Below, piece by piece: positions 44,547 to 61,396 of a stretch of DNA of 64,000 nt. This DNA is from Prolixibacteraceae bacterium. GTDB taxonomy: Bacteria; Bacteroidota; Bacteroidia; Bacteroidales; Prolixibacteraceae. Numbering within the stretch: the first letter of the stretch is position 1; each line of letters begins with the position of its first letter. Under the pieces are notes generated by a model. That model was given only the letters and a program-made list of their open reading frames with translations, did no database searches and had not been told where the DNA came from. Location of the stretch: assembly GCA_009773765.1 (NCBI GenBank), contig WTWZ01000004.1:66507-130506 (forward strand), written 5' to 3'. The translations under genes and the position numbers were made by a program.

Positions 44547-44912
44547 ATGAGAATATTTTTACTTATAACATTTATCATAGTTTCGGTTTCGGTTTTTTCA
44601 CAAAACCTGCAGGCAAATCCTCCGGGCTTGAACACCCGGTTTTCGGAAGAAAGCACCCTTTCATTGGAACTCAGGGTATATCCTAATCCCGCTACTGACG
44701 GTAAAGTTACAGTTGAAATCAATAGCCAGGAAATTAGCGAAATACGATTAACCAACATTACAGGTAAAGAAGTATTTCTGAAAAAATTTCAGTTAGCCGA
44801 AAACAAAAAGGAAATTCAGTTAAACGACATTCCAAACGGGTTATATATCATTCGGATAATAACTTCAGGCCAAAATCAGGTGATGAAGAAACTGATGGTT
44901 GCCAAAAACTAA
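44547..44912 (+). CDS. Mini-protein consisting of a signal peptide plus a T9SS type-A C-terminal sorting domain
   Basis: 121 aa. It has the signal peptide MRIFLLITFIIVSVSVFSQ, then only about 25 residues, then a CTD (LRVYPNPATDGKVTV...GLYIIRIITSGQNQVMKKLMV). Confidence 0.75.
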   Translation: MRIFLLITFIIVSVSVFSQNLQANPPGLNTRFSEESTLSLELRVYPNPATDGKVTVEINSQEISEIRLTNITGKEVFLKKFQLAENKKEIQLNDIPNGLYIIRIITSGQNQVMKKLMVAKN

Positions 44913-45255: not shown

Positions 45256-45525
45256 ATGCAAGAATTTGAGTTGGTTGGTTGGATTGGAGCAGTTACTTTT
45301 GTTATTGCATATTTATTTTTGAGTATTAAAATCCTATCTCCTGATAAGATTTTATATCATGCTTTAAATGCCATTGGCGGACTTTGCCTTACTATCAGTT
45401 CTGATTACTACAAGGACACTCCAGGTTTTTTTGTTAATTTAATTTGGATGTGTATTGCATTGTATTCAATATTTAGAGTTGTTAGGCTTGGATTGAGAAC
45501 TAAAAAGCAAACAACTACTTTATGA
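45256..45525 (+). CDS. Small 3-TM membrane protein (unassigned)
   Basis: 89 aa with three hydrophobic helices. Its 3' end overlaps the convergent TetR gene by 11 nt, and it lies in an AT-rich stretch. Confidence 0.5.
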   Translation: MQEFELVGWIGAVTFVIAYLFLSIKILSPDKILYHALNAIGGLCLTISSDYYKDTPGFFVNLIWMCIALYSIFRVVRLGLRTKKQTTTL

Positions 45526-46108
45526 CCTGAAGGATTTCCAATACATGTTGTTTATAACACTCAACTTTTATGTTGTACTCTTTTTTATCATCTACAAGTC
45601 CCAGGTAATAATATGCACCCTCCAATAAAGCAAATATTATTTCAGTTTGATTATCAATATTTTCAAGTTTAATAATTTCGCTTTTCTGAGCATCCATAAA
45701 CGATTGTTTTAAAATTGACCGCAATGAATCGTGCAGTTGTTTGAATTTGCTTTGGAATTTCTTGTTTCGGAATACATGAGCATAGCAGCTATAAAAAACA
45801 CCATCATCGAACAGTCGATTCCACTTCCTGGAAAATAATTTATCTATTAAATCAAGAAGCTTTTCAGTGGAATTTATTTTTCCATTGGATGTATATATTT
45901 GTAAATATCTTTCAAGAATGTACTCAATAAGAGCAACTTCAAGTTCTTGCTTTGACTTAAAATAATGAATAATTAAACTTGGATTAATTTTCAAATGTTC
46001 AGCCACCTTTGCAATTGATGTTTTATCTAATCCTTCACGTTTTGCAACAAGGTAAAATGATTTTACAATTTCCTTTTGTCGGATTTCCTTTAAACTTTTT
46101 CGCCCCAT
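45515..46108 (-). CDS. TetR/AcrR-family transcriptional regulator
   Basis: 197 aa with the N-terminal HTH EIVKSFYLVAKREGLDKTSIAKVAEHLKINPSLIIHYFKSKQEL. It is divergent from susC. Confidence 0.88.
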   Translation of the reverse strand: MGRKSLKEIRQKEIVKSFYLVAKREGLDKTSIAKVAEHLKINPSLIIHYFKSKQELEVALIEYILERYLQIYTSNGKINSTEKLLDLIDKLFSRKWNRLFDDGVFYSCYAHVFRNKKFQSKFKQLHDSLRSILKQSFMDAQKSEIIKLENIDNQTEIIFALLEGAYYYLGLVDDKKEYNIKVECYKQHVLEILQVIK

Positions 46109-46252
46109 CTATTATAATAAAGAGATTAAACCTAATAAATCAGACCGATTCCATTAAAATTATCAAATGATTCCACAAATTTTTGGATCAATATGAATTT
46201 ATTTTGAACGTAAAACTAAGGAAATAAAAAATTATAAGCAATATATATTGAA

Positions 46253-46262
46253 TGAACGTTCA
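46253..46262. promoter_or_regulatory. Candidate TetR operator: perfect palindrome TGAACGTTCA (half-site TTTGAACGT repeated at 46203-46211)
   Basis: Read from the sequence in the 288-bp tetR/susC divergent intergenic region. The half-site TTTGAACGT occurs once on each strand. Confidence 0.4.
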
Positions 46263-46396: not shown

Positions 46397-49300
46397 ATGG
46401 AGAAGTACATTTTACTTAACAGAGAGCAAGTTCAAAAATTTATATTCACTTCTGCAGTTTTGATTTCAATGTTTATGCTGTCATTTCAGGTTAGTGCCCA
46501 GGGAGTGCAGGTAAGAGGAAAAGTTGTAGCAAAAAGTGACAATTCAGGACTCCCCGGAGTTTCAATTATTGTAATAGGCACTTCAGTTGGAGTTGTTACC
46601 GATGTTGAAGGGAATTATCAAATTTCTGCACCTGATAACAACAGTATACTTCTTTTTTCTTTTATTGGTATGAAAACACAGGAAGTTGAAATTAAAGGTC
46701 AACCAGTGATTGATATTATATTGAATGAATCAACGGAAGATCTTGATGAGGTAATAGTAGTTGGTTACGGCACCCAAAAAAAGGTTAACCTTTCAGGCGC
46801 TGTTAATCAGGTTAATCTTGAATCACTTAACAGTCGTCCAATTACAAACATTGCTCAGGGATTACAAGGGCTGGTTCCAAACTTAAACATCGATATGCTG
46901 GGAGGTGAGCCTGGAGCTTCACCTTCATTTAATATTCGTGGTTTCACTTCTATTAATGGTGGCTCACCCTTTATATTAATTGATGGCGTTCCTTCAACAA
47001 CTGAAGAACTTAATCGATTAAATCCTACGGACATAGAAACTCTTTCCGTTTTAAAAGATGCCTCATCAGCAGCAATTTATGGAGCAAGAGCAGCATTTGG
47101 CGTAATTTTACTTACAACCAAAAAGGGGAGTCGACAAGGGGTTCACCTCGATTATAACGGATCAGTTTCTTATGGCAGACCAACTATTTTGCCTGAACCA
47201 GTAAAAGATCCATACTACATTTTAAGTACGCAAAAAGAAGCTGCCCGCGACTGGCAGGCATTGTTTAATCCATCGCAACAACAGCTTGATTATGCAAAAC
47301 AGCGTTCTTTAGATCCTTCACTACCATCTGTAATCGTCGATCCCAACGACCCTGAAAAGTGGTTTTATGCAGGAAATTTCGACTGGTACAATTTTTTCCT
47401 CAATGATTATGCTCAAACTACCGAACACACCATGTCAGTGAGTGGAATATCAGAAACCGTAAATTATTATTTCTCAGTTAACTATTTGAATCAGGATGGG
47501 ATAATAAAGTTAGCTGATGATTTGTATGAAAGACTAAACCTCCGAAGCAAAATTGAATTTAAAGTCAGCGATTGGCTGTCGGTTTCAAACAACACCGTAC
47601 TTATTAACACAAACAGGGACAAACCTTCCCAGGATGTTCTTTATGGAATTTACTATCCTGTACCTGTCCAGGTTCCGTACAACCCTGACGGCAGCTGGTC
47701 TGATACTTTCGGTGGCCGCGAAGCTGCACGGGTAAAAGAAGGTGGAACACAAAACACAGAAACCAACGGGTTTCAATCAACTGTGGCTTTTACCGCTAAA
47801 TTTCTTAAAGATGCGCTTCAAATAAACGGTGATTTTACTTATAAAAGGGAAAATTCAACACAGTCTTTCACCCGGAAAAAAGTGTACTACAGCCCGGGCC
47901 CCGGGATTATCAGGGACGATGGCACAAACAACAGCGCCTGGGAGTGGTATTTTAATGACAAATATGCTGTTTCCAATTTGTATGCTTCGTTTAATAAAAC
48001 TATTAATAAACACTTTTTAGGCGCTATTGCAGGTTATAACCAGGAATCAAGAGTTAGTAAAAATTTCTGGGCAGAAAGGGCTGAATTAATAAGCGACGAC
48101 CTTCCTTCCATCGAACTTGCAACCGGTGAAATGGATGTTGGGGCAGACTATTACGACTGGGCCATCAGGGGCGCATTTTTAAGGCTTAATTATATCTTCG
48201 GTGAAAAATACATTGTTGAATTAAACTCCCGTTATGATGGTTCATCACGCTTTCCGGTTAACAACAGATTTGGGCTCTTTCCCTCTTTTTCCGCAGCATG
48301 GCGGATGTCAGAGGAACAATTCATGGATTTTTCAACTAATTTTTTAAGCAATTTAAAATTCAGGGGTTCATGGGGAACTCTTGGAAATCAAAGTATTGGA
48401 CCTTACGATTATATCGAGAAAATGGAAACCTATAAGATTTGGGAAATTCTGGGAGGGAAAAGGCCGGTAGCTGTTGGCCCTCCACAATTGGTTGCACAGA
48501 ATTTTACATGGGAATCCGTCACTTCGAGAAATATTGGCGTTGATATTGGCCTTTTTGACGGCAAATTAACTACCGAATTTGATTATTATCTCCGCGACAC
48601 AAAAGACATGCTAACCACAGGCAAAGAATTACCCGCAGTACTCGGCGCTGACGAGCCACTGGAAAATGCAGCCGACCTGCAAACAAAAGGTTGGGAACTA
48701 ACACTTAATTTAAATGAAAAATTTAACCTGGCAAATTATCCTTTTCTTTTAACAGCCAGGTTTATTTTATCCGACAGCAAAACTTTTATTACCCGCTTTG
48801 ACAATCCGGATAATCTTCTTGACCAATATTATGAAGGGCATGAGGTTGGTACGATTTGGGGCTTGGTTAACGATGGATTTTTTAACAACCAGGAAGAAAT
48901 TGACAATGGGGCCGACCAAAGATGGTTGTCGCCGTGGGGCCTTGCAACCCAGGTTGGCTGGAACAGGTATGCCGATTTAAATAATGACGGGTACATCAAC
49001 AACGGATCTAATACCGTTAACGACCCCGGTGATTTAAAAATAATTGGCAACAGTTCGTCACGGTATCGTTTTGGTTTTGATCTTTCGGGGAACTGGAAAG
49101 GATTTGATTTGCGCATGTTTTTACAGGGAATAGCAAAAAAAGATTTCTATCCTCAGGGATATTTCTACTGGGGGCAATTTTACAAACCTTACCAAAATAC
49201 TTACAAACACATGCAGGGCAATACCTGGACTGAGGAAAACAAGGAGGCATTTTTCCCCCGAAACACTGCATGGTTAGCCGATGTCTGGGGAAAAGGGCTT

Positions 49301-49564
49301 TCAAGGGAGCAGTCTCAATACTTGATGAGCGCCAGCTATTTAAGGATAAAAAATTTAATGTTGGGGTATCAAATACCTAAACAACTGACATCTAAAATTG
49401 GGATAGACTATCTGAGATTTTATGTAAGCGGCGAAAACCTGTGGGAATGGTCCGGATTAACTGAAGTATTCGACCCTGAAGCAGTAAATGATGCTTACTG
49501 GGACTGGGGATGGGTTTATCCTTTCCAAAGGCGTTATTCGGTTGGTGTAAATATCCGTTTTTAA
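46397..49564 (+). CDS. SusC/RagA-family TonB-dependent outer-membrane transporter
   Basis: 1055 aa with a signal peptide, a CarboxypepD_reg-like domain (VRGKVVAKSDNSGLPGVSIIVIGTSVGVVTDVEGNYQI), a TonB-box/plug start DEVIVVGYGTQKK and a terminal aromatic ...VGVNIRF. No STN/anti-sigma domain is present. Confidence 0.93.
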   Translation: MEKYILLNREQVQKFIFTSAVLISMFMLSFQVSAQGVQVRGKVVAKSDNSGLPGVSIIVIGTSVGVVTDVEGNYQISAPDNNSILLFSFIGMKTQEVEIKGQPVIDIILNESTEDLDEVIVVGYGTQKKVNLSGAVNQVNLESLNSRPITNIAQGLQGLVPNLNIDMLGGEPGASPSFNIRGFTSINGGSPFILIDGVPSTTEELNRLNPTDIETLSVLKDASSAAIYGARAAFGVILLTTKKGSRQGVHLDYNGSVSYGRPTILPEPVKDPYYILSTQKEAARDWQALFNPSQQQLDYAKQRSLDPSLPSVIVDPNDPEKWFYAGNFDWYNFFLNDYAQTTEHTMSVSGISETVNYYFSVNYLNQDGIIKLADDLYERLNLRSKIEFKVSDWLSVSNNTVLINTNRDKPSQDVLYGIYYPVPVQVPYNPDGSWSDTFGGREAARVKEGGTQNTETNGFQSTVAFTAKFLKDALQINGDFTYKRENSTQSFTRKKVYYSPGPGIIRDDGTNNSAWEWYFNDKYAVSNLYASFNKTINKHFLGAIAGYNQESRVSKNFWAERAELISDDLPSIELATGEMDVGADYYDWAIRGAFLRLNYIFGEKYIVELNSRYDGSSRFPVNNRFGLFPSFSAAWRMSEEQFMDFSTNFLSNLKFRGSWGTLGNQSIGPYDYIEKMETYKIWEILGGKRPVAVGPPQLVAQNFTWESVTSRNIGVDIGLFDGKLTTEFDYYLRDTKDMLTTGKELPAVLGADEPLENAADLQTKGWELTLNLNEKFNLANYPFLLTARFILSDSKTFITRFDNPDNLLDQYYEGHEVGTIWGLVNDGFFNNQEEIDNGADQRWLSPWGLATQVGWNRYADLNNDGYINNGSNTVNDPGDLKIIGNSSSRYRFGFDLSGNWKGFDLRMFLQGIAKKDFYPQGYFYWGQFYKPYQNTYKHMQGNTWTEENKEAFFPRNTAWLADVWGKGLSREQSQYLMSASYLRIKNLMLGYQIPKQLTSKIGIDYLRFYVSGENLWEWSGLTEVFDPEAVNDAYWDWGWVYPFQRRYSVGVNIRF

Positions 49565-49594: not shown

Positions 49595-51352
49595 ATGAAA
49601 GCAATAAAAATAATTTTTGGAATAATAACCTTTTCGCTGTTTATTGCCTGTAACGATGAATATCTTGATCGGTTGCCGCAAACACAGCTTTCGCCCCGGA
49701 ATTTTTTCAACAACCCGCAAGACCTAAAAACTTATTCCAACGGCTTTTACAGCATGTTGCCCGGCGCCGAAATTGCAACTGACGATGCCCAAAGCGACAA
49801 TTGCCTTGCAGTTCAGGCCAGTGAACTTACCCGGATACTCACTGCCGCCAATGCCAGTTCTGAAAATGTAACCAGCGGATGGGATTGGGCCGATCTCAGA
49901 AAAATAAATTTTTTCCTTGAAAATTATCAGCGGGTTGATACAAAAGCCGATTATAAAAATCACTATGCCGGGGTTGCCAGGTTTTTCAGGGCAATGTTTT
50001 ACTACAATAAAATAAAAAGGTTTGGAATTGTCCCATGGTATTCAGGAACAATGGGAACAGGCGACATCGATTTATTATACAAAACCCAGGACAGCCGCGA
50101 GTTGGTTGTAGATTCGGTAATGGCCGATCTCGATTTTGCAATTCAACATATTAAGGAAAAAGCAGACGAGTACGGGACAATTGATAAATGGTGCGCCCTG
50201 TTCTTAAAATCGAGGATTGCCCTCCACGAAGGTACATTCAGAAGATACCACCCAGAACTGAATCTTGAGGGAACTGCCAGCCATTTTTTGGAAGAATCCC
50301 GCAAAGCTTCACTTGAAATAATGAATAGTGGTAATTTTTCCATTTATTCAACAGGTAATTTTGCAAACGATTATTATAATTTTTTTGCTGCCGATGACTA
50401 TTTCGACAACAAAGAAGTTATACTATCAAGCGTTTATGATGAAAAGTTTGAAAGAGGATCAAGCCTTAATTATATTTTGTACAATTATGATTTTTCCATG
50501 ACCAAAGACCTTGTGAATACCTACCTTATGACAGATGGTACACGATTTACTGATAACGTTAGATACCCCACCCGCAAATTTGTTGATGATTTTTTAAATC
50601 GTGACCCGCGATTATTTCAAACTGTAATGGGCCCCGGGCTTACCCGAAATGGAGAAAAATATGTACCAATTGTAACTCCCGGTGGAAATCCAACCGGATA
50701 TGTTCAGCGAAAATTTTACATCGATAACCTTGAGGGGACTTATTATGGCGATATTCCTATTTATCGTTATGGCGAAGTTCTTTCAAACTATGCCGAAGCA
50801 ACCGCTGAATTAGGGTTGCTTACACAAACCGACATCGATATTTCAATTAATCTGTTACGTGACCGTGTTGGAATGCCACATATGAAATTGAATTATATCC
50901 TTACCAATTTTGATCCGATTTTGGAAGCACAATATCCAAATGTTATTGGTGAAATGAAAGGTGCAATACTTGAAATCAGGCGTGAACGTAGGGTTGAACT
51001 GGCCGGGGAAGGCCGCCGGTATGATGACTTGATGCGATGGTATTCAGGTAAACTTTTAGAAGCCGAATTCCTTGGAATGTATTTCCCCCGGACAGGAAGA
51101 TACGATATGACTGGTGACGACATTGCCGATTTAATCCTGGTTGAAAAAATGCCGCCAACTGTTGATCAGGAAGAAGGCATGGTATATTTAAGTCTTGAAA
51201 ATGTAAAATTGACTGAGGGTTTTAAAGGTAACCTGATTTCGAAAGAATCGGAAAACAAAAAATTTATTGAACCAAAATACTATTACCGCCCGGTTCCAAG
51301 GCAACAGACTATATTAAACCCGAATCTAAAACAGTTATTTGGGTGGAATTGA
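49595..51352 (+). CDS. SusD/RagB-family outer-membrane lipoprotein
   Basis: 585 aa with lipobox FSLFIAC and the SusD-typical block EIRRERRVELAGEGRRYDDLMRW. It follows susC after 30 nt. Confidence 0.92.
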   Translation: MKAIKIIFGIITFSLFIACNDEYLDRLPQTQLSPRNFFNNPQDLKTYSNGFYSMLPGAEIATDDAQSDNCLAVQASELTRILTAANASSENVTSGWDWADLRKINFFLENYQRVDTKADYKNHYAGVARFFRAMFYYNKIKRFGIVPWYSGTMGTGDIDLLYKTQDSRELVVDSVMADLDFAIQHIKEKADEYGTIDKWCALFLKSRIALHEGTFRRYHPELNLEGTASHFLEESRKASLEIMNSGNFSIYSTGNFANDYYNFFAADDYFDNKEVILSSVYDEKFERGSSLNYILYNYDFSMTKDLVNTYLMTDGTRFTDNVRYPTRKFVDDFLNRDPRLFQTVMGPGLTRNGEKYVPIVTPGGNPTGYVQRKFYIDNLEGTYYGDIPIYRYGEVLSNYAEATAELGLLTQTDIDISINLLRDRVGMPHMKLNYILTNFDPILEAQYPNVIGEMKGAILEIRRERRVELAGEGRRYDDLMRWYSGKLLEAEFLGMYFPRTGRYDMTGDDIADLILVEKMPPTVDQEEGMVYLSLENVKLTEGFKGNLISKESENKKFIEPKYYYRPVPRQQTILNPNLKQLFGWN

Positions 51353-51388: not shown

Positions 51389-53146
51389 ATGAAAAAGTTT
51401 TACTTTCTTTTTGCTTTTTTACTAAGCATTTTTTCAAATCAATCTAATGGACAATCCATTACGATTCCAGGAGGAACTCAGTATTTATCTGTTGATTCGA
51501 TTACGTTTGTATATGAAAACCCCGGATTCGTATCAACAGACTGGATTGGTATCTATCCAGAAGGAATTAAACCGGGCGACCAGGCATCCACAGCCTGGCA
51601 ATATGTAACAGGCTCTTCAGGTAATGCAGTTATTAAAGACACAATCCCTGGCGGCAAATACGTTGCATATTTGCTTTGCTGCGATGGTTATGAAGTTAAG
51701 GCTTCAACAGTTGTTATTACAATTCTTGAGCCCAAAATTTCATCATTATCACCATCATATCTTGCTGGGGACACTATTGCCTTTACTTTCGAAAGCCCGT
51801 TGTTCGCACCTACCGACTGGATTGGGATTTATAATGATAATGGCGTTCCCCCCAGCGGAAGCAATGCCTCAATCGAATGGGGTTATATCCCTGCTAATTC
51901 AGGGGTAATGAAATTTACGACAAAATTAATTCCCGGCAATTACATTGCATATTTGTTATGTTGCGACGGATACCGCGTTTTAGATGGTATTCGTTTTATA
52001 ATTGAAGACCCGAAAACTGCTTTTGTAAGGCCTGTAAAAATGGCATTTGGAACTACCGACAAAATTGCTTTCAACTTTAACAATCCCGATTATGAGGACG
52101 AAGACTGGCTTGGTGTATATTATGCCGGCGATGACCCCGAAAAAGTTCCTGCGGTGGCATGGAAATATATAAAATCCACAAAAGGGACAATAACACTTGA
52201 CGATGTATTGCCGGCAGGCTCCTATGAAGCTTATATTTTCTGCTGCGATGCTACTGATATTATGATTGCCAAATCTGAGGTTTTCACTTCTGCCGGGGGC
52301 GCTGCAAGTTCGTTCATCAGAACATCAGCATCAGTTTATCCTCCAAATTCACTTGTTTTAATTAATTACAGAAGCTCAGGCTTTACCAATACCGATTGGA
52401 TTGGCATTTATAACGACAACGGAATAGCTCCTGGTTCGGGAGGGCCGTCAATTGCCTATGTTTATGCACCTGCCGACTCTGGAACAGTAACATTTACTAC
52501 TGTGCTTGCTCCGGGGAAATATGTTGCTTATTTATTGTGTTGTGATGGATATAATGTGAAAGCTAAATCTAATTTCTCAGTTGGCGATGCCACCTCAAAA
52601 GTAATGGTAGCAACTTCATTTACATTTGGCAAATCCGACTCTCTATTTTTTAGGTACAACAACCCCGGCTTTTCATCTACCGACTGGATAGGCATATACA
52701 AATCGGGAGATGTGCCGGGAAACATCAATTCAATAACTTGGGATTATTTAAAAACAGCGTCAGGGAGAATGGCTTTTGCCAACACCCTTAATGTGGGAGA
52801 ATATTGGGCAGGGCTCTTCTGTTGCGATGGTTATGAACTTTATGCCAAATCTACTTTTATGGTTGTTGAAGGAACTCCGGTTTCGGCAAGAAATATTGAG
52901 TCAGAAAAAAGCAAACTTATAGTGTTCCCCAATCCATCAAACGGGCAGTTTACTTTACTTTCACAAGGAAATACAGTACTTGGGCAGGTTGAAGTTTTCA
53001 GCATTTCGGGCAAACTTATGTATTCTGAAAAAATAAACAATCCAGGAATCCTGACCATCAACCTTAAAAGATTAGACGCCGGAGTTTATATTTTGAAAGC
53101 AATGTCGGAAAGCGATATGTTTACAACCAAAATTATTATTCAATAA
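51389..53146 (+). CDS. T9SS-exported protein made of five tandem DWIGIY/CC-motif modules (SGBP-position protein, function unknown)
   Basis: 585 aa with a signal peptide, five repeats of about 92-97 aa, and a type-A CTD (LIVFPNPSNGQFTL...GVYILKAMSESDMFTTKIIIQ). Confidence 0.85.
   Translation: MKKFYFLFAFLLSIFSNQSNGQSITIPGGTQYLSVDSITFVYENPGFVSTDWIGIYPEGIKPGDQASTAWQYVTGSSGNAVIKDTIPGGKYVAYLLCCDGYEVKASTVVITILEPKISSLSPSYLAGDTIAFTFESPLFAPTDWIGIYNDNGVPPSGSNASIEWGYIPANSGVMKFTTKLIPGNYIAYLLCCDGYRVLDGIRFIIEDPKTAFVRPVKMAFGTTDKIAFNFNNPDYEDEDWLGVYYAGDDPEKVPAVAWKYIKSTKGTITLDDVLPAGSYEAYIFCCDATDIMIAKSEVFTSAGGAASSFIRTSASVYPPNSLVLINYRSSGFTNTDWIGIYNDNGIAPGSGGPSIAYVYAPADSGTVTFTTVLAPGKYVAYLLCCDGYNVKAKSNFSVGDATSKVMVATSFTFGKSDSLFFRYNNPGFSSTDWIGIYKSGDVPGNINSITWDYLKTASGRMAFANTLNVGEYWAGLFCCDGYELYAKSTFMVVEGTPVSARNIESEKSKLIVFPNPSNGQFTLLSQGNTVLGQVEVFSISGKLMYSEKINNPGILTINLKRLDAGVYILKAMSESDMFTTKIIIQ
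51461..52864 (+). repeat. Coding tandem repeat array: 5 copies of a ~92-97-aa module
   Basis: D-W anchors fall at residues 51/143/239/336/432 and Cys-Cys at 97-98/191-192/285-286/384-385/478-479 of the ORF translation. Confidence 0.85.
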
Positions 53147-53193
53147 TGGCTTTAAATTTAACCTGTTATATTTTGAAATAATTATTAACTATA

Positions 53194-53231
53194 TTCTACT
53201 CTGTTTAAATGAACAGGGTAGAATTTTTTTT
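53194..53231 (+). terminator. Intrinsic terminator after the repeat-protein gene (inside the SusCD locus)
   Basis: 12-bp stem ttctactctgtt / aacagggtagaa (one G-U pair), a 6-nt loop, then a T8 tract. It lies 48 nt after the stop. Confidence 0.7.
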
Positions 53232-53272
53232 ATAAAATCAGTTTGAAACGTTTTGAAAAATTCAGGATTATC

Positions 53273-55759
53273 ATGATGAAGTTTTTACTCCATTTAAAAT
53301 TTTTATCACGCAATAAATTCTCCTTTCTGTTTATTTTTTTGACGGGATTTAACAATTACTGTTATACACAGGTAATAATACCCTATTTGCAATCGCCATC
53401 CCCAACAACCATCCTGGTTTCCTGGAAAACCGGAACAGGGACTGAAACAATAGTAAAAATCGGGACAGATTCGCTTAATCTAAACCAAACATTTACCGGA
53501 AGTCATCAGAAACTGACAGATTCCGGATATACTGGCAATTATTTTTACCACAGCGTCCAGCTTACCGGGCTTCAGCCTTCATCGTTTTATTATTACAAAG
53601 CAATTACCGGGGCAATTGAGTCAAAAACATACCGTTTTAAAACCCAACCTGAAAATGGCAACAATTTTGGCCATTTCCGGTTTCTCATAATTGGGGATAA
53701 CCAGATTGCAAACCGTGATGGTTTTGAGCGATTGATGTCGGCGGCAAATAATAAGGTATTTCAAAAATACGGCGGTTCAATTGAAGAAAATATCAATCTA
53801 ATAATGAATGTCGGCGACCAGGTTGATGAAGGAAATTTATTTCAATATGAAAATGTGCATTTTGGGAAATCAAAACTATTATCGCCAAATTTGCCAATAA
53901 TGACTGCTGTGGGAAACCATGAAACCTATGGTACCATGGGGCTGGAAGCATATTACCATCATTTTTTTTACGACAAACTCCGCTATAAGGGAATTGTTAG
54001 CCCCGGCGGTGAAGATTATTACTCCTTTCAGGCGGGGCGCGTTGTGTTTGTTGTATTAAGCAGCGAGCATCCAAACATTGACCAGGTACGATGGGTTCAG
54101 CAATTAATAGATTCGGTTAAAGTTGATAAAGATGTTGATTGGTTAATAAGCGTTGCACACCGGCCAATCCAGGCTGAACAATATATCGATGATATTTCTC
54201 CGTATATCAAAAACCAGGTTGTGCCGATATTAACACAAAGCCCAAAATCGGTGATATTGATTACCGGCCATCACCATCTGTATGCCCGCGGCCAACTGGC
54301 CGATTTCCCCATGTACCATATCATTTCGGGCGCTGCTTCGTGGGATCAATTTTGGGGGCAATCTGTTGAAAAAGATTATGACAATGTTCAGAAAACAATC
54401 GATTTCTGGGCATATCAAATAGTAGATATCGACCTTGAAAAACAAGAAATGCAAGTTGAAAGTTATGCAATCGGCAGCCCAAAACTTGGATTTACATTGA
54501 ATAATGTTTTAATCGATTCGTTTCACAGAACATTCGGAAACCCGATTCCTTCTCAACCAAAAATAGCAACAGAAGTTCCGGATACTATCCAATTGCCCTT
54601 TACATTTAAAAGTTCGGAATTTCAAACCAAATCGGGCGAAGAACTTAACAGCACACAATTCCAGGTTTCGGCAAACGAAGAATTTATAAATCCTGATAAA
54701 GATATTATTCGCGATTTTGAAAATCTTTACGGCTCTACCGGCAATCCCGGATATTTACCTGTCGATATTAATAAAAATATAAACCTACTTGAATACAAAA
54801 TTAAACAGTATGGGCTCCCAAATGGCAGATATTTTATCCGTGTCCGCCATCGCGATAAAAATTTGGAATGGTCGGACTGGTCAAATAAAAAGTCGTTTAT
54901 TGTTACAAAAAGCACAGAAGGAATTTCTGAAGTATCGACACTGAAAAAGTATTTTGATATAAATGAACCCATTAATATTTTTTATAAAAATGGCCCGGCC
55001 AACCAAAAAGACTGGATTGGGATTTACCGAAAGGGGGAAACTCCGGGCAGTGGAAGCTATTCAACCGATTGGAAATATGTAAATTCACCTTCAGGAATGG
55101 TAACCCTTCAGGTGAACGCACCAGGCGAATATTTTGCCGTTTTGTTTAGCAACGATGGGTACACCGAAATCTCACAACGGGTTTGGATAAATATAACATC
55201 TATTCCGGTTACAACCACAAGCAAATCCGTTTATGACGAGAGGGAGAAAATAGTGGTAAATTTTTTAAACGCACCTTCTTTTAAGTACGACTGGATTGGC
55301 ATTTACAAACTCGGCAATATTCCTGGAATGGTTGGATCAACCGATTGGAAGTATGTTTCAGGGAAAACCGGCTCGGTAATATTTAACAGCCTGCCCCCGG
55401 GAAATTATTTTGCAAACTATTTTTTGCTTAACGGGTATGACGAACCCGGCAATAGGGTTTATTTTTCAGTTGAAACAAATGCTGTATCTGCCAAATATAA
55501 TTTGACCGGTGAAACAATAACTATCTACCCGTCGCCCACCAATGGAATGTTAAATATCGGCTTTAATAATTTCAGGGAAAATATTAAAACAATTAGTGTA
55601 ACCACACTCTTGGGACAATTGGTCTTTTTTCAGAGTTTAAAAGAGGATCATTTGAAAGAAACAGAAACCATTGATATTTCCGGCAATCAAAAAGGAATTT
55701 ATTTAATTTCCGTAACAACCCACGCTTCTACAATGACGGGAAAAGTAATTTTAAAATAA
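53273..55759 (+). CDS. Purple-acid-phosphatase-like metallophosphoesterase with two DWIGIY modules and a T9SS CTD
   Basis: It has an N-terminal PAP-type FN3-like domain (PYLQSPSPTTILVSWKT) and metallophosphoesterase blocks LIIGDNQ, NVGDQVDEG, VGNHE and ITGHHHLYARG. Two modules follow (NQKDWIGIYRKGE, KYDWIGIYKLG), then the CTD (ITIYPSPTNGMLNI...GKVILK). The ATG at 53273 is preferred over the TTG at 53243. Confidence 0.85.
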   Translation: MMKFLLHLKFLSRNKFSFLFIFLTGFNNYCYTQVIIPYLQSPSPTTILVSWKTGTGTETIVKIGTDSLNLNQTFTGSHQKLTDSGYTGNYFYHSVQLTGLQPSSFYYYKAITGAIESKTYRFKTQPENGNNFGHFRFLIIGDNQIANRDGFERLMSAANNKVFQKYGGSIEENINLIMNVGDQVDEGNLFQYENVHFGKSKLLSPNLPIMTAVGNHETYGTMGLEAYYHHFFYDKLRYKGIVSPGGEDYYSFQAGRVVFVVLSSEHPNIDQVRWVQQLIDSVKVDKDVDWLISVAHRPIQAEQYIDDISPYIKNQVVPILTQSPKSVILITGHHHLYARGQLADFPMYHIISGAASWDQFWGQSVEKDYDNVQKTIDFWAYQIVDIDLEKQEMQVESYAIGSPKLGFTLNNVLIDSFHRTFGNPIPSQPKIATEVPDTIQLPFTFKSSEFQTKSGEELNSTQFQVSANEEFINPDKDIIRDFENLYGSTGNPGYLPVDINKNINLLEYKIKQYGLPNGRYFIRVRHRDKNLEWSDWSNKKSFIVTKSTEGISEVSTLKKYFDINEPINIFYKNGPANQKDWIGIYRKGETPGSGSYSTDWKYVNSPSGMVTLQVNAPGEYFAVLFSNDGYTEISQRVWINITSIPVTTTSKSVYDEREKIVVNFLNAPSFKYDWIGIYKLGNIPGMVGSTDWKYVSGKTGSVIFNSLPPGNYFANYFLLNGYDEPGNRVYFSVETNAVSAKYNLTGETITIYPSPTNGMLNIGFNNFRENIKTISVTTLLGQLVFFQSLKEDHLKETETIDISGNQKGIYLISVTTHASTMTGKVILK

Positions 55760-56135: not shown

Positions 56136-58571
56136 ATGGGTTTGGCTATTTCGAAGGATAATTCGCTGATTTATGTTTCCGGTGGACAGGAAAACAAGAT
56201 TTATATTTTCGATTTGAACTCGGGTGAAAAAAAGGATTCAATCGACTGTTCTTTTGTTTCTGAAATTGTGGATTACTCACACGGCTACATTGGCGATATG
56301 GTTCTTTCGAAGGATGGGAAAAAATTGTATGCCGTTGACCAGATTGGTTTCAGGATGTTGATTATCGATACTGAAACAGGAAAACTGGAACACAACGTTC
56401 CGGTGGGCAGGTATCCGTTTGGAATTTGCCTTTCGCCCGATGAACAAAAGGTTTATGTCGCCAATGTAGGGATGTTTCAGTACAGCATGATACGCGGAAT
56501 TACCGAAGAAAACGTGATTGCAAAAGCGATGAAATACCCTGCATTTGCCTATGGCAGTAAGGAAATGATTGAAGGAATTGAAACTGACAGCGTTTCAATT
56601 CCGGGTTTGGGAGAAATGAACTCGCCCGATGCATTTTCGGTTTTTACAATCAGTTTGGCAAACACAGAAAAGCCTGAAGTAATTGCCAAAACAAAAACCG
56701 GTAATTTGGTCGGCGCTTTGGTTGAGGGAATTCCGGCAGTTGGCGGTGCAAGCCCCAATTCGCTGGTTGCCACCGATAAATATGTTTTTGTAACCAACGG
56801 AACCAACGACAATATTTCGGTAATTTCCATCGAAAAAGATACGGTCGTTAATACTATATATATTAAACCCGACGAACGGGTTAAACAATTCCGTGGAGTA
56901 ATTCCGTTTGGACTTGCACTTACGCCCGACAACCAGAAACTATATGTCGCCTGCTCGGGAATCAATGCTGTGGCTGTTGTTGATGTCACAAAATTGAAGG
57001 TTACAGGTTTTATTCCCACCGGCTGGTTTCCGGCCAAACTCAAGGTGAGCAACGATGGCAAAAAACTCATTGTTTCAAATGCCAAAGGTTTTGGAAGCGG
57101 ACCAAACGGAGGTTCCACTTTTGATAGTGGCCCTGAGGGAAGTTACATTGGTTCACTGATGAAAGGCTCCGTTCAGGTTGTTGATATTCCTTCAGATGAA
57201 GAATTGAAAGCATATACAGAAAAGGTAATTTCAAATAATTTCAATTTCGAAAAAGCCAGTGCAGAAAAATTTGCCGGCAGGAAGAATAACCCTGTACCGC
57301 TATTCCCAGGCGAAAAAGTAAGTCCGATAAAACACATTGTTTTTATTTCGAAGGAAAACCGTACATACGATGAAGTTTTTGGTCAGATTGAAAAAGGGAA
57401 AGGCGATCCTGAGCTGGCACGCTATGGAACTGGAGTAAGTTTCAGAAACAGCAAAAGATCAGCATCCGTTGAAAATGCCGACGTAATGGTGAACCATCTG
57501 AAACTCGCACGCGAATTTGCTATTTCCGACAATTTTTATGTTGATGCAGATGTTTCTGCAGATGGTCACCGCTGGCTGGTAAATACATATCCAAACCAGT
57601 GGACAGAAACCAGTACATCGGCCAGTTACGGAGGAAACCGCGAATTTAGATTCGACTCAAAAGCACCCGGGGTTTATGCCATGAACGGCGCTGCCGGAGC
57701 GATTTATCCCGAAGATTACAACGAAGCCGGTTCGATGTGGGATCACCTGGAACGGAACAACATCGATTTTTACAACTTTGGCTTCAGCATTATGTTTGAA
57801 CCGGGGATCTATGAAGAACAATACAAATACGAGGGAATCAGGCATTATATCAATTACCCTCTTCCCCAGCCTATCTGGGATCGAACCTCGAAAGTTTATC
57901 CAACCTACAACATGGCCATCCCCGACCAGTTTCGGATTGACCAGTTTCAAAAGGAATTTACCAAAAAATGGATGAACGGAAAAGATACAATGCCCGCATT
58001 AATGACAGTAATTATTCCCAACGACCACGGCGCCGAAGATCGTCCTGAAGCTGGGTACCCTTTCCGCGAAAGTTACATGGCCGACAATGATTTGGCTGTT
58101 GGCAGAATTGTGGAATTCCTATCGCACACTCCTTACTGGGAAAATATGCTAATAGTAATTACCGAAGATGATGCACAAAATGGCGTTGACCACATTGATG
58201 CACATCGCAGTATTTTAATGCTGGTTTCGCCGTGGGTGAAGAAAGATTATGTGAGCCATATCCATTACAGTTTCGGGAGTATTTTCAAAACTTTCTGGAA
58301 TATTCTCGGATTGCCGTACCTGAACCAGTACGATGCCGGGGCTACCGACATGTCCGATTTCTTTACCGAAACGCCCGATTTTACAGCATACCGCGCAATT
58401 CCGGTTGACCCAAGAATCTTCGATCCACAACAAGCGCTTGATCCGTTTGATGAAAATTTCGACTGGAAAGCGCTGGAAGAATCTCCGGTAATGGACAATA
58501 AAGAAGACATGATTAACGAAAGTAAGGAAAAAGAGGAATACCGGCTGGAGAACAGGGAGAAGGAAAAATAA
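56136..58571 (+). CDS. YncE-like beta-propeller fused to a PLC/AcpA-type phosphoesterase (N-terminus apparently severed by an in-frame stop)
   Basis: 811 aa. The propeller repeats include SKDGKKLYAVD, SPDEQKVYVANVG, TPDNQKLYVACSG and SNDGKKLIVSNAKG. The phosphoesterase-family blocks are HIVFISKENRTYDEVFGQ, VIIPNDHG and ITEDDAQNGVDHIDAHRS. The ORF as called has no signal peptide. Confidence 0.8.
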   Translation: MGLAISKDNSLIYVSGGQENKIYIFDLNSGEKKDSIDCSFVSEIVDYSHGYIGDMVLSKDGKKLYAVDQIGFRMLIIDTETGKLEHNVPVGRYPFGICLSPDEQKVYVANVGMFQYSMIRGITEENVIAKAMKYPAFAYGSKEMIEGIETDSVSIPGLGEMNSPDAFSVFTISLANTEKPEVIAKTKTGNLVGALVEGIPAVGGASPNSLVATDKYVFVTNGTNDNISVISIEKDTVVNTIYIKPDERVKQFRGVIPFGLALTPDNQKLYVACSGINAVAVVDVTKLKVTGFIPTGWFPAKLKVSNDGKKLIVSNAKGFGSGPNGGSTFDSGPEGSYIGSLMKGSVQVVDIPSDEELKAYTEKVISNNFNFEKASAEKFAGRKNNPVPLFPGEKVSPIKHIVFISKENRTYDEVFGQIEKGKGDPELARYGTGVSFRNSKRSASVENADVMVNHLKLAREFAISDNFYVDADVSADGHRWLVNTYPNQWTETSTSASYGGNREFRFDSKAPGVYAMNGAAGAIYPEDYNEAGSMWDHLERNNIDFYNFGFSIMFEPGIYEEQYKYEGIRHYINYPLPQPIWDRTSKVYPTYNMAIPDQFRIDQFQKEFTKKWMNGKDTMPALMTVIIPNDHGAEDRPEAGYPFRESYMADNDLAVGRIVEFLSHTPYWENMLIVITEDDAQNGVDHIDAHRSILMLVSPWVKKDYVSHIHYSFGSIFKTFWNILGLPYLNQYDAGATDMSDFFTETPDFTAYRAIPVDPRIFDPQQALDPFDENFDWKALEESPVMDNKEDMINESKEKEEYRLENREKEK

Positions 58572-58645: not shown

Positions 58646-61396
58646 ATGTTATTATTCCTATTACTCAAAATGAACAGGCAAGTTGGAAAAACGCTGTTTT
58701 TAACAATCGCTTTACAATTTTTCACTCTTTCAATGCTATTTGCACAGGGATTTTTACACCGTAATGGCAGATATATTTACGACGGTTCAGGCAAGGAAGT
58801 GATATTAAGGGGAATTGGCACCGGTAACTGGATGCTTCAGGAAGGCTACATGATGCAGACTTCGGGAGTTGCGAACACACAATATGAATTCAGGGCGAAA
58901 CTGGTCAGTACAATTGGCGAAGCAAAAACCGACAGTTTTTATACTGTTTGGCTCGATTCTCATTTCAGGAGAATTGATGTGGATTCCATGAAATCATGGG
59001 GTTTTAACAATGTGCGCGTTGCCATGCATTACAAATGGTTCACACTGCCCATTGAAAAGGAACCAGTTGCAGGTCAGCAAACATGGCTCGACAAAGGATT
59101 TACGATGATTGATTCACTGCTTGACTGGTGTGGTGACAACCAGATGTACCTGATTCTCGATTTACACGGGGCGCCGGGCGGACAGGGAAAAGATGCAGCG
59201 ATTTCGGATTATGACAAAACAAAACCTTCGCTTTGGGAGAGCCAGGCAAATAAAGATAAAACCATTGCCTTGTGGCGAAAACTTGCTGAAAGGTACAGTG
59301 ATGAACCCTGGATTGGGGGATATGATTTGATTAACGAACCCAACTGGAGTTTCCCGAATGGAAATACTCCGCTGTGGGATTTGCTGAAGCAAATAACCAG
59401 CGCGATACGTGAAGTTGACAAAAACCACCTTATTTTTATCGAAGGGAACGGATTTGCTAACGATTACAATGGATTGCCAGCGATTTGGGATGACAATCTG
59501 GCAATCAGTTTTCATAAATACTGGAATTACAATACTCAGGAATCGATAAACTTTGCTATCAATCTGCGAAATTCGCGAAATGTCCCAATCTGGATGGGCG
59601 AAAGTGGTGAAAATTCCAACAATTGGTTTACCGGATTAATTGAACTGCTCGAAAAAAACCGCATTGGCTGGTCGTGGTGGCCGGTTAAAAAACCAGGTAT
59701 TAATAATCCGCTCAGGGTAACTGTTAACAGCGATTATACAAATCTTGTCAATTTCTGGAAAGGAACAGCGGCCAATCCCGGAGTTGATGCGGCTTTTAAA
59801 GCCGTGCTTCAATTTGCAATCAATCACCGACTCGAAAATTGCTATTACCAAAGAGATGTTGTTGATGCGATGATCAGACAACCCCATTCAACCGAAACCA
59901 TTCCTTTCAAAATATTTAAAACCGGCGAACCAATTTTTGGTGCCGATTACAATCTTGGAAGAACCGGTTTTGCCTATTTCGATAATGATACTGCCAATTT
60001 TCATGGCAGTACAAATGTTTATACCGCCTGGAACCAGGGCTGGGGTTACCGAAACGATGGTGTGGATATTGAAATCTGCAAAGATTCTGATGAAAATAAC
60101 GGATTCAACGTCGGCTGGACCGGGAACAATGAATGGATGGAATACACGGTTGAAGTGGATTCAACAGCAGCTTATACATTAAATGTACGTTCTGCTTCGG
60201 GTTCGGGAGGTTCAAAAATCAGACTCGAAATTAGGGGACAGTCAGTTACTCCGGTTATTCAGTTGCCGGGTACCTCAGGTTGGCAGAGATGGCAAACCAG
60301 CACTTATCAGGGAGTGATACTTGAAAAAGGGATAAATAAAATCAAGCTTATTTTTGATCAGGGAGGTTCAAATTTGAATTATTTCAGTTTTTCAACTCCG
60401 GTGGAAGTTGAAGAACTTGCCTTTAAAAATCTTTATGCCGAAACTTCAAACGATGGGAAAACAGTTTTTTTGACACTAAACAAACCTGTGACTTCTCCCA
60501 ATTCCGAATTAAACATTTCTGAGTTCACGGTAACCATCAACAATAATTCTGTTGAAATCAGTGAAATTACCATTGACGACAAAAGCAGTAAAGTTCTTGT
60601 AATCAAAGTAAATGACCCGTTATTTTATGGTGGGACTATCAAATTATCGTACAACGGAAACAACATTTTCAGCGATGAACAGGCATTGGAAATGTTTTCG
60701 AATTTAACTGTTGCCAATAAACTTCCTGTCCGATATAATCTTCCCGGCAGAATTCAATCCGAAAATTACTACTATAATAATGGTATGGTATCAGAAACCT
60801 GCACCGATACCGGAGGTGGTTTTAACATGGGTTATGCCAATCCGGGCGATTATCTTGATTACCTGGTTTATGTTCCATCGGCAGGGAATTACAAGTTTAA
60901 TTTCCGGGTGGCATCCGAGCGTTCATCAAGCCAGATAATTATTCGTGTTGGAGAAGGGAACTCATTTACCGCAGTTGATACAGTTACCATTACAGGTACA
61001 GGTGGATGGCAAACATGGAAAACGATTTCATCAACCGCATTTCTTCCTGAAGGCAGATACACACTGAGAATTTATGTCAGGTCGGGTGAATTTAATACCA
61101 ACTGGTTTGAGGCGGCAAAAGCGCCAATCACGGGAATAGAAACGGATGCAATAAATGGTTTCCGGATTTATCCGAATCCGGCAAATGATAAAGTTACCAT
61201 CGAAACGGGTGGTTTGCAGGGCGGAGAAAAAATCGTAACCTTTTACAACGCAAACGGACAAATTGTGCAAACCAATAAATATTCTGAGCCAAATCAAACC
61301 GAAATTGATATTTCAAATCTAAGCAAAGGTTTGTACTTTGTGGAAATTAAAGCTGGAAACGGCTTTTTGAAGACTGCAAAACTCGTGGTTTGGTAA
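58646..61396 (+). CDS. Glycoside hydrolase family 5 enzyme with two CBM6-like modules and a T9SS CTD
   Basis: 916 aa with a signal peptide. GH5 blocks are GFNNVRVAMHY, LILDLHGAPGGQG, LINEPNW (acid/base Glu) and WMGESGEN (nucleophile Glu). There are two CBM6-like segments (...NEWMEYTVEVDSTAAYTLNVRSAS...GWQRWQT and GDYLDYLVYVPSAGNYKFNFRVAS...GWQTWKT). The CTD reads FRIYPNPANDKVTI...LKTAKLVVW. Confidence 0.85.
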   Translation: MLLFLLLKMNRQVGKTLFLTIALQFFTLSMLFAQGFLHRNGRYIYDGSGKEVILRGIGTGNWMLQEGYMMQTSGVANTQYEFRAKLVSTIGEAKTDSFYTVWLDSHFRRIDVDSMKSWGFNNVRVAMHYKWFTLPIEKEPVAGQQTWLDKGFTMIDSLLDWCGDNQMYLILDLHGAPGGQGKDAAISDYDKTKPSLWESQANKDKTIALWRKLAERYSDEPWIGGYDLINEPNWSFPNGNTPLWDLLKQITSAIREVDKNHLIFIEGNGFANDYNGLPAIWDDNLAISFHKYWNYNTQESINFAINLRNSRNVPIWMGESGENSNNWFTGLIELLEKNRIGWSWWPVKKPGINNPLRVTVNSDYTNLVNFWKGTAANPGVDAAFKAVLQFAINHRLENCYYQRDVVDAMIRQPHSTETIPFKIFKTGEPIFGADYNLGRTGFAYFDNDTANFHGSTNVYTAWNQGWGYRNDGVDIEICKDSDENNGFNVGWTGNNEWMEYTVEVDSTAAYTLNVRSASGSGGSKIRLEIRGQSVTPVIQLPGTSGWQRWQTSTYQGVILEKGINKIKLIFDQGGSNLNYFSFSTPVEVEELAFKNLYAETSNDGKTVFLTLNKPVTSPNSELNISEFTVTINNNSVEISEITIDDKSSKVLVIKVNDPLFYGGTIKLSYNGNNIFSDEQALEMFSNLTVANKLPVRYNLPGRIQSENYYYNNGMVSETCTDTGGGFNMGYANPGDYLDYLVYVPSAGNYKFNFRVASERSSSQIIIRVGEGNSFTAVDTVTITGTGGWQTWKTISSTAFLPEGRYTLRIYVRSGEFNTNWFEAAKAPITGIETDAINGFRIYPNPANDKVTIETGGLQGGEKIVTFYNANGQIVQTNKYSEPNQTEIDISNLSKGLYFVEIKAGNGFLKTAKLVVW

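Follow-up and report, generated by a model that had tools for sequence, protein, structure and literature searches.

A five-module array of SKICH-like domains with paired cysteines, possibly a capture protein of a SusCD–phosphatase locus in Prolixibacteraceae

The gene considered here, from a Prolixibacteraceae bacterium, encodes five tandem copies of a module of about 95 amino acids, each with two adjacent cysteines. It was found in a window of 64,000 nucleotides (GenBank assembly GCA_009773765.1, contig WTWZ01000004.1, positions 66,507 to 130,506 of the forward strand), to which all coordinates below refer unless another locus is named. Six genes follow one another on the same strand, and these encode SusC, SusD, the repeat protein (hereafter the array protein), a purple acid phosphatase (PAP), a fusion of a YVTN propeller to a PF04185 domain, and a protein of the type IX secretion system (T9SS) with GH5, CBM35 and CBM6 domains. 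The SusC/RagA-type TonB-dependent transporter is encoded at 46397..49564 (+; TIGR04056, E = 2.4e-250) and the SusD-family lipoprotein at 49595..51352 (+; PF07980, E = 1.3e-41), and the array open reading frame (ORF; 51389..53146, +; 585 amino acids on translation) begins after a gap of 36 bp; an earlier note on this DNA, which had placed the gene directly after SusD, was right as far as the window is concerned. On the opposite strand no overlapping ORF of 80 or more amino acids is found over the array gene, and an identical (100%) database protein from a Prolixibacteraceae metagenome-assembled genome (MAG) is annotated as a hypothetical protein.

The array protein begins with a Sec signal peptide (51389..51451, +; residues 1-21), with predicted signal peptidase I cleavage between ...SNG and the following Q, and a helix is placed over residues 2-17 in the AlphaFold2 (AF2) model. 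The N-terminus, MKKFYFLFAFLLSIFSNQSNG followed by Q, contains no cysteine and hence no lipobox. Q22 is conserved at 90% or more across 71 orthologues, and fits the Q-rule reported for signal peptidase I substrates of Bacteroidetes (PMC5837995). The repeats, previously delimited at 51461..52864 (+; residues 25-492), are followed by a flexible linker (52877..52921, +; predicted local distance difference test score, pLDDT, below 50 at residues 496-507 of the full-length AF2 model) and by a T9SS type A C-terminal sorting domain (CTD; 52922..53140, +; residues 512-584), which is matched by PF18962 (E = 8.6e-13; 48.8 bits, cut-off 27) and by TIGR04183 (E = 1.1e-13; 51 bits, cut-off 23). The signal peptide and the CTD proposed in the earlier note are thus borne out by both profiles and by the AF2 helix, and with these two signals the array protein qualifies as genuine type A cargo of the T9SS.

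The five-module architecture read previously from the translation, with the exact positions of the DWIGIY and Cys-Cys residues, is likewise confirmed. All modules lie on the + strand, and each carries the motif DW[IL]G[IV]Y, in the form TDWIGIY in four copies and EDWLGVY in one. Module 1 (51449..51733; residues 21-115), a SKICH-like immunoglobulin (Ig)-fold β-sandwich, has TDWIGIY at residue 50, and thus the motif itself at 51, and Cys-Cys at 97-98 (codon pair at 51677-51682); in module 2 (51725..52012; residues 113-208) the motif starts at 143 and the cysteines are found at 191-192 (51959-51964). Module 3 (52013..52300; residues 209-304; motif at 239, Cys-Cys at 285-286, 52241-52246) is the most divergent, with EDWLGVY and CCDAT, and is followed by module 4 (52304..52591; residues 306-401; motif at 336, Cys-Cys at 384-385, 52538-52543) and module 5 (52592..52876; residues 402-496; motif at 432, Cys-Cys at 478-479, 52820-52825). 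The protein has no cysteines other than these ten. A W-x-Y motif had been described about 18 residues further on, and this holds for four repeats, in which it follows the aspartate by 19-21 residues, but not for repeat 4, which has Y-V-Y instead.

The five copies align over about 95 amino acids with 14 invariant columns, and BLASTP among them gives E-values of 3e-14 to 3e-28 at 30-51% identity. No tandem repeat is detected in the array gene at the DNA level, which indicates that the duplication is old. Each window repeat is nearest to the repeat at the same position of its orthologues, a correspondence that is clearest at positions 4 and 5 and only weak at 1 and 3, and position 5 is the best kept between orthologues (48-63% identity). 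A recent duplication artefact in the DNA is ruled out by this same-position similarity and by the inter-repeat identity. Five modules are found in 94 of the 120 closest homologues, and this constant number, together with the position-specific identity, suggests a geometric constraint, as might be expected if the array served as a spacer, an alternative that is weighed further below.

The Cys-Cys pair is retained in 519 of the 545 orthologous repeats of these 120 homologues (95%), and both of its columns are 95% cysteine; both residues are lost together in 25 repeats and only one of them in a single repeat, so that the claim that the cysteines act as a pair stands, and the survey of homologues does not reveal loss of the pair in most orthologues. 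The pair is kept in 114 of 115 first modules, whereas module 3 is the position most often without it (kept in 93 of 110 third repeats). Because the double losses affect module 3 of one clade and modules 1, 2, 4 and 5 of other proteins, at least six of them must be independent, and the pair is most often replaced by x-Asn, as is usual in the wider family. There, in 588 modules taken from the 143 best representatives that do not belong to the array subfamily, both columns are variable or Asn, with 4% Cys, and the module consensus is ...KDWIGIY...G-x-Y-x-A-R-L-F-x-N-D-G-Y. The earlier statement that Cys-Cys is kept in every copy is therefore correct for the five window copies, but the pair does not define the module, as is also seen in the PAP copies, which lack it; the pair is a derived character, specific to a narrow subfamily within Bacteroidota. 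As a background, the 45 other ORFs of the window (18,029 residues) contain 0.57% Cys and a single Cys-Cys dipeptide.

In both the single-module and the full-length AF2 models, the first cysteine ends strand F, or in module 3 directly follows it, and the second opens the C-D-G-Y turn into strand G. This predicted location is typical of vicinal-disulfide turns and compatible with one, though no proof of it. The all-or-none loss fits a bond between both residues, or else a joint site, and a vicinal disulfide is probable in each module, with the oxidation state read from the pattern of co-loss. Vicinal disulfides are rare and nearly always functional, acting in contact with ring faces, stabilisation or switching (PMC12102755), and in 1wd4 such a bond touches the flat face of an arabinofuranose (PMC12102755, section 2.5.5). 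The array resembles 1wd4, methanol dehydrogenase and the nicotinic receptor α subunit in having adjacent cysteines at a turn of an extracytoplasmic protein, but differs from them in repeating the pair in each of five units, which is unusual, and in that its oxidation state is deduced. Disulfides between modules were also considered and set aside, as the modules are separate β-sandwiches, each with its own adjacent pair alone.

A very improbable alternative, in our view, is that the cysteines stay reduced and form five vicinal dithiols, which would bind soft metals or metalloids (Fe, Zn, As(III), Hg) or serve in a redox relay, for instance one that maintains an active Fe(III)-Fe(II) centre in the PAP in low-oxygen sediment. 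Adjacent cysteines bind Hg(II) or As(III) in MerA, MerT and ArsD, and purple acid phosphatases depend on an M(II) site that is kept reduced. How strictly the cysteines are paired also fits such a role, and many of the source MAGs belong to Prolixibacteraceae, a family with facultative anaerobes. Nevertheless, no further conserved metal ligands (His or other Cys) are found near the pair, and no redox partner or metal-resistance genes at the locus. A vicinal disulfide is moreover strained and readily reduced, so that its dithiol form would be a poor electron donor, and the interchange of Cys-Cys with x-Asn in paralogous modules suits a turn or a platform better than a chemical function.

Regarding the fold, the module had been described as unassigned, and this does not hold. 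The whole protein passes the Pfam cut-offs of SKICH (PF17751; 35.2 bits against 23.4) and HECW_N (PF16562; 27.7 bits against 26.7), with no single repeat passing either alone, and nearly all homologues carry precomputed SKICH and HECW_N assignments in the protein database. Among 71 diverse single repeats, 37 match SKICH at E < 1 (best 2.7e-5), and relatives of the array protein reach 66.9 bits (P0122). With hhalign, the repeat profile aligns with the SKICH domain of NDP52 end to end over 80-86 columns at 68-72% probability, and the wider-family profile reaches 93% over the first 32 columns, which include the common (K/T)DWIGI(F/Y) strand; the NDP52 sequence used for this purpose is approximate, and only its first half was confirmed by the alignment from the PDB search. 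When PDB sequences were searched with the profile of the five window repeats no match was obtained even at E <= 10, and deeper profiles gave matches that are all marginal, namely NDP52 (E = 0.013-0.7), TAX1BP1 (0.1) and HECW2 (1.2), in addition to NOMO and SdrD.

The AF2 model of a single module (module 2) is an eight-strand β-sandwich with a pLDDT of 95.8. A Foldseek search of the PDB with this model returned nothing at E <= 0.001; its best matches are generic macroglobulin (MG), Fc-receptor, FN3-like, Wzt carbohydrate-binding and TapA domains (TM <= 0.67), and SKICH structures are absent from the top 50. The full-length model (pLDDT 86.7; predicted template modelling score, pTM, 0.49) consists of five separate sandwiches, a linker and the CTD, and in Foldseek it matches generic tandem-Ig proteins alone, including a fragment of the T9SS grappling hook of Aureispira (9flw) and S-layer proteins. 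We conclude that the module is an Ig-like β-sandwich and probably a remote bacterial relative of SKICH, a membership made probable by sequence profiles and not borne out by the structural search. It resembles the SKICH domains of NDP52/CALCOCO2, TAX1BP1, SKIP/INPP5K and PIPP, and HECW_N, in its length (about 95-110 amino acids), its Ig-like β-sandwich and the (K/T)DWIGI(F/Y) motif; the first cysteine of the array aligns with that of 'QFCYV' in the approximate NDP52 sequence, and eukaryotic SKICH domains are also fused to phosphatases, in the inositol 5-phosphatases SKIP and PIPP. However, SKICH is cytosolic, single-copy and protein-binding, while the array module is extracellular, tandem and Cys-Cys-bearing, and the assignment gives no functional information for an extracellular bacterial protein.

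None of the carbohydrate-binding module (CBM) families occurs among the Pfam matches of the whole protein or of the 71 single repeats (E <= 1), the nearest trace of a carbohydrate-binding domain being Wzt_C (E = 0.27). Profile and structure searches with the repeat accordingly gave no confident match to a CBM, Ig or FN3 family of known ligand, and neither a solved close relative nor a known ligand for the module family emerged from the PDB sequence, Foldseek and Pfam searches. The suggestion of a new ligand-binding repeat family thus survives in that no family of known ligand was matched, but a wholly new family would be too strong a claim for a large family already touched by Pfam. When 1.84 billion representative proteins (clusters) were searched with the 71-repeat profile, 3,944 proteins were found at E <= 0.001 and 1,767 at E <= 1e-10, with 2-13 module copies in 200-2,500 residues, and database labels of the representatives that read 'hypothetical protein' or nothing. 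On this assignment about 3,900 clusters make up a very large extracellular branch, in bacteria, of a Pfam family (SKICH) regarded as 'eukaryotic', and a literature search on bacterial SKICH or PF17751 members found nothing. The wider family includes purple acid phosphatases, clostripain-type peptidases with cadherin-like domains, and pure arrays of 5-8 modules without Cys-Cys. What is distinctive of the window protein is only the subfamily with Cys-Cys and S-P-x-F, and its stand-alone form of five modules. Since secreted enzymes and similar proteins (PAP, PhoD, peptidases C11 and M64, CBM48-like proteins) also carry modules of the family in an accessory role, with or without Cys-Cys, a dedicated ligand-binding role is plausible at most.

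In order to locate what sets the array modules apart, 545 of them were compared column by column with 66 phosphatase-borne modules. Both sets have in common the core motifs DWIGIY, Pro42, Ser47, W-x-Y, Gly58, G-x-Y and D-G-Y, but differ mainly in the B–C loop (S-P-x-F/Y in the array, N-G-P-G in the phosphatases), in the F–G turn (Cys-Cys against x-N) and at two positions of strand F. From the strand order of the model, the B–C, C'–E and F–G loops are expected to share one pole, the same through which Ig V domains, FN3 domains and several β-sandwich CBMs bind their ligands. As the subfamily-specific residues concentrate in the B–C loop and the F–G turn, they seem to define one putative site, in which the aromatic residue of the B–C loop appears to stand beside the probable disulfide. 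A more specific proposal, which we consider unlikely, is that the Cys-Cys subfamily is a new CBM-like ligand-binding family whose disulfide and B–C aromatic residue stack on the ring of a phosphorylated glycan, an inositol phosphate or a nucleotide.

Related loci were collected by a genome scan with the five-repeat alignment and the pattern YxA[YG][LI][LF]CCD[GA]; because this pattern contains Cys-Cys, the scan favours modules of that type. All 16 genome loci recovered (16/16) are from Bacteroidota MAGs of two classes, with hosts in Prolixibacteraceae, other Bacteroidia, and Saprospiraceae including Lewinella and Phaeodactylibacter. Gene neighbourhoods were compared in 27 loci. In the clusters that we call type A, the array gene is followed by SusC, SusD and a phosphatase with two or three modules lacking Cys-Cys, sometimes with a PF04185 enzyme, ThuA or a GFO/IDH/MocA oxidoreductase added at the 3' end; the window and L006 are variants of this type in which SusCD comes first. 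In type B (L003, L008, L010, L016 and L024, e.g. L024 6363..17366), the order is DeoR, array, in some cases a phosphatase, GH123, DUF5107 (BDI_1685-like), PF06439 (3-keto-disaccharide-hydrolase-like) and GFO/IDH/MocA, which by its gene content resembles a pathway for the oxidative catabolism of glycosides, with the array gene at its head.

A five-module Cys-Cys array beside SusC/SusD and a PAP whose modules lack Cys-Cys is found in about 10 independent loci. Most related loci have the array gene next to SusC or SusD, as a rule on the upstream side of SusC, and some arrays are located in clusters without adjacent SusCD. The window has a SusCD pair of the PF07980 type, and the pair found in most type A loci, which is of the PF12741/PF12771 type, is not its orthologue. 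Since array and PAP co-occur even where SusCD differs or is absent, the constant partnership is that of array and phosphatase, and not with a particular transporter. Modules of the Cys-Cys type are also fused to a PhoD phosphatase (P0159, N-terminal of the PhoD domain), to an M64 peptidase (P0213) and, in a SusR-regulated GH30 polysaccharide locus, to a CBM48/53-like protein (P0115; L022 8001..9818), and a protein with two such modules (P0104; L005 10001..10984) adjoins an Exo_endo_phos gene. The repeated link to unrelated phosphoesterases (PAP, PhoD, PF04185 and Exo_endo_phos) points to phosphorus acquisition, and the presence of glycosidases and oxidoreductases as partners suggests that the substrate contains sugar.

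Arrays of 5-7 modules without Cys-Cys and without a T9SS CTD were also observed (L026 7366..8853 and L027 8001..10049), both in clusters for polysaccharide or O-antigen biosynthesis with flippases, glycosyltransferases and methyltransferases, which implies that the wider module family has other roles. Such arrays would be in keeping with an alternative in which the protein is a general T9SS-exported surface adhesin or coat protein, with SusCD and phosphatase as incidental neighbours, as would the resemblance of the full-length model to tandem-Ig surface proteins (9flw, S-layer) and the Cys-Cys arrays that have no phosphatase as a neighbour. However, the linkage to PAP, SusCD or both, or to GH123, PF06439 and GFO, recurs over two Bacteroidota classes with varying gene order, a pattern expected from selection for co-function, and we regard an adhesin or coat protein as quite unlikely.

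Taken with the gene content of these loci, the reading that we favour, with a probability of roughly 45%, is that the array is a surface-displayed multivalent capture protein of a Pus-type SusCD locus that scavenges phosphorus, each of its modules containing a vicinal disulfide; in this reading we infer the disulfide, retention at the surface, the function in binding and the class of substrate. In Flavobacterium, SusCD clusters induced by phosphate starvation (PusCD) are built on phosphatases and include abundant uncharacterised surface proteins (Lidbury et al. 2020, PMC8115612). As in those clusters, a SusCD pair is co-located here with secreted phosphomono- or phosphodiesterases and with uncharacterised T9SS or lipoprotein surface proteins, and in the window a composition of this kind is found in one same-strand row of SusC, SusD, array, PAP and PF04185. 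The likeness is one of gene content, and the differences are the PAP and PF04185 families, the Prolixibacteraceae and Saprospiraceae MAGs as hosts, and a regulator of the TetR family; furthermore, no protein of the array-module type is described for PusCD (PMC8115612).

In the favoured reading, the array protein would be exported by Sec and cleaved before Gln22, and its modules would fold in the periplasm, where each Cys-Cys pair would close to a strained vicinal disulfide. The T9SS would then carry the protein to the cell surface, where it would be anchored or released. At the pole where the loops B–C, C'–E and F–G come together, Ser-Pro-x-Phe/Tyr and the F–G disulfide could build a flat platform, against which a ring-bearing part of a phosphorylated organic substrate would lie; a phosphoglycan, a glycolipid head group, an inositol phosphate or a nucleotide would be examples. 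Five such sites in a row would provide avidity for polymeric or particulate material, from which the neighbouring phosphatases would free phosphate, while SusCD would import the product.

Several observations weigh against capture of phosphorylated substrates. The modules often lie between a catalytic or CBM-like domain and the CTD (PAP, P0213 and P0115), and this is also the location of spacer Ig domains in T9SS cargo. The PAP copies lack Cys-Cys, so that, if the pair makes the site, they must bind differently or not at all, and one clade of orthologues has lost the pair in module 3 while the module itself is kept. Eukaryotic SKICH domains mediate contacts between proteins and do not bind small ligands. 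Locally the regulator belongs to the TetR family and no PhoB/R was identified (a Pho box was not searched for), and regulation by phosphate can hence only be presumed; some arrays occur in clusters without a phosphatase (L003 and L016). Finally, many of the MAGs may come from anoxic habitats, where the pair could stay reduced.

The main rival reading is a scaffold or stalk, i.e. a semi-rigid Ig rod on the cell surface that would organise or space the phosphatase and SusCD in a utilisome-like complex through contacts between modules or between modules and SusD, and in which the disulfides would do no more than harden the domains for life outside the cell. This would agree with the role of eukaryotic SKICH domains as protein-protein interaction modules, with the placement of modules between functional domain and CTD in the multi-domain relatives, and with the geometric constraint mentioned above; homotypic contacts are possible, as the partner phosphatase carries modules of the same family, the change from Cys-Cys to the turn-forming x-Asn in the wider family is consistent with a purely structural turn, and stable 'utilisomes' of SusCD, enzymes and surface glycan-binding proteins (SGBPs) do exist (PMC7618045). 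On the other hand, the long retention of a protein made of spacer domains alone would be unusual, and the residues specific to the subfamily are gathered in two loops at a single pole and not scattered across the module. Although no domain stands before module 1, it retains Cys-Cys in 114 of 115 cases, the Cys-Cys modules of P0159 are N-terminal to the PhoD domain and not beside a CTD, and the pTM of the full-length model (0.49) gives no sign of a fixed rod. We therefore hold a scaffold to be doubtful, though not to be dismissed lightly.

The array may also be compared with SusE/F-type SGBPs, which are tandem β-sandwich proteins beside SusCD that act as binding proteins. Similarly, the array lies beside susC/susD, consists of tandem β-sandwiches only, and belongs to a module family that it has in common with the surface enzyme of its locus. 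It differs in having a T9SS CTD and no lipobox cysteine, so that it is not a lipoprotein, which is a defining feature of SGBPs, in the absence of sequence similarity to SusE/F or to any CBM family, in partner enzymes that are phosphatases and not carbohydrate-active enzymes, and in a gene that mostly precedes susC in the related loci. The 'SGBP slot' of the earlier note is thus occupied in the window, but the position is not conserved, since elsewhere the gene is mostly found before SusC or without adjacent SusCD, and its product is T9SS cargo instead of a lipoprotein. A further likeness is that to the Ig-like domains that precede the CTD of T9SS cargo, such as the IgSF domain of RgpB, as in PAP, P0213 and P0115 the sandwich stands directly upstream of a type A CTD; in contrast to these proteins, the array has no other functional domain for its modules to present.

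The array family is a testable candidate for the recognition of organic phosphorus by SusCD systems of environmental Bacteroidota. If the array does bind organophosphates, it would be the first dedicated surface organophosphate-binding protein of a SusCD-type phosphorus uptake system, and the first assigned function for the bacterial SKICH branch; if it is a spacer only, these genes could still be annotated as SKICH-like Ig-fold T9SS surface proteins, and no longer as 'hypothetical'.

Among the other genes of the window, the PAP (53243..55759, +) comprises Pur_ac_phosph_N and Metallophos domains, two modules without Cys-Cys and a T9SS CTD. Its module copies are found at 54923-55204 and 55199-55483 (+; i-E-values 2.6e-24 and 8.5e-23), with FSNDGY and FLLNGY, respectively, where the array has CCDGY. 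Its nearest solved relatives are plant PAPs (6git, E = 4e-10) and lupin PPD1, and because these are too distant its substrate cannot be deduced from them. The phosphatase region at residues ~460-590, which separates the catalytic domain from the two modules and has weak matches to Y_Y_Y and fn3_PAP, recurs in module-bearing proteins that lack a phosphatase domain (P0123, P0140, P0174, P0183 and others), and may be a second uncharacterised accessory domain that travels with the module.

The next gene (56136..58571, +) encodes 811 amino acids with a YVTN/lactonase-type β-propeller and a PF04185 phosphoesterase domain (AcpA/PLC family), and a homologue of it follows the PAP in L007. On the basis of its domains, the product is a second candidate phosphatase of the locus, and the type of fusion seems to be uncharacterised. 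Directly downstream lies the gene for the protein with GH5, CBM35, CBM6 and a T9SS CTD (58646..61396, +), which may tie the phosphatase locus to glycan degradation.

With respect to expression, a terminator-like hairpin (53193..53224, +; consensus match only), with a 14-bp stem followed by a T-run (TTTTTTT), is found 3' of the array gene. As it sits between the array stop (53146) and the phosphatase ORF, the TTG start of the latter at 53243 is doubtful, and an ATG at ~53273 ('MMKFLL...') is the more likely start. A single transcript may cover SusC, SusD and the array, the phosphatase being expressed by read-through or from a promoter of its own. Divergent from SusC, a TetR-family regulator (TetR_C_37) is encoded at 45515..46108 (-), and a TetR_C_37 regulator also adjoins the array gene in L023. 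In the intergenic region between TetR and SusC a perfect palindrome, TGAACGTTCA, can be read from the sequence at 46253..46262, with a half-site, TTGAACGT, upstream of it at 46204-46211, and both together are a candidate operator. No Rfam families were found in 44-62 kb of the window.

Two minor observations may be added. In L023 (1..16902) there are two paralogous five-module arrays, one beside GH123 and the other beside SusC, as well as the reverse transcriptase of a group II intron, on a contig where the ORFs for SusC, SusD and the phosphatase are broken into pieces, which could reflect decay or an assembly error. In the window, an ORF of 121 amino acids at 44547..44912 consists almost entirely of a T9SS CTD (PF18962, E = 2e-15) with hardly any cargo, and could be a gene remnant or the result of a mis-called start.

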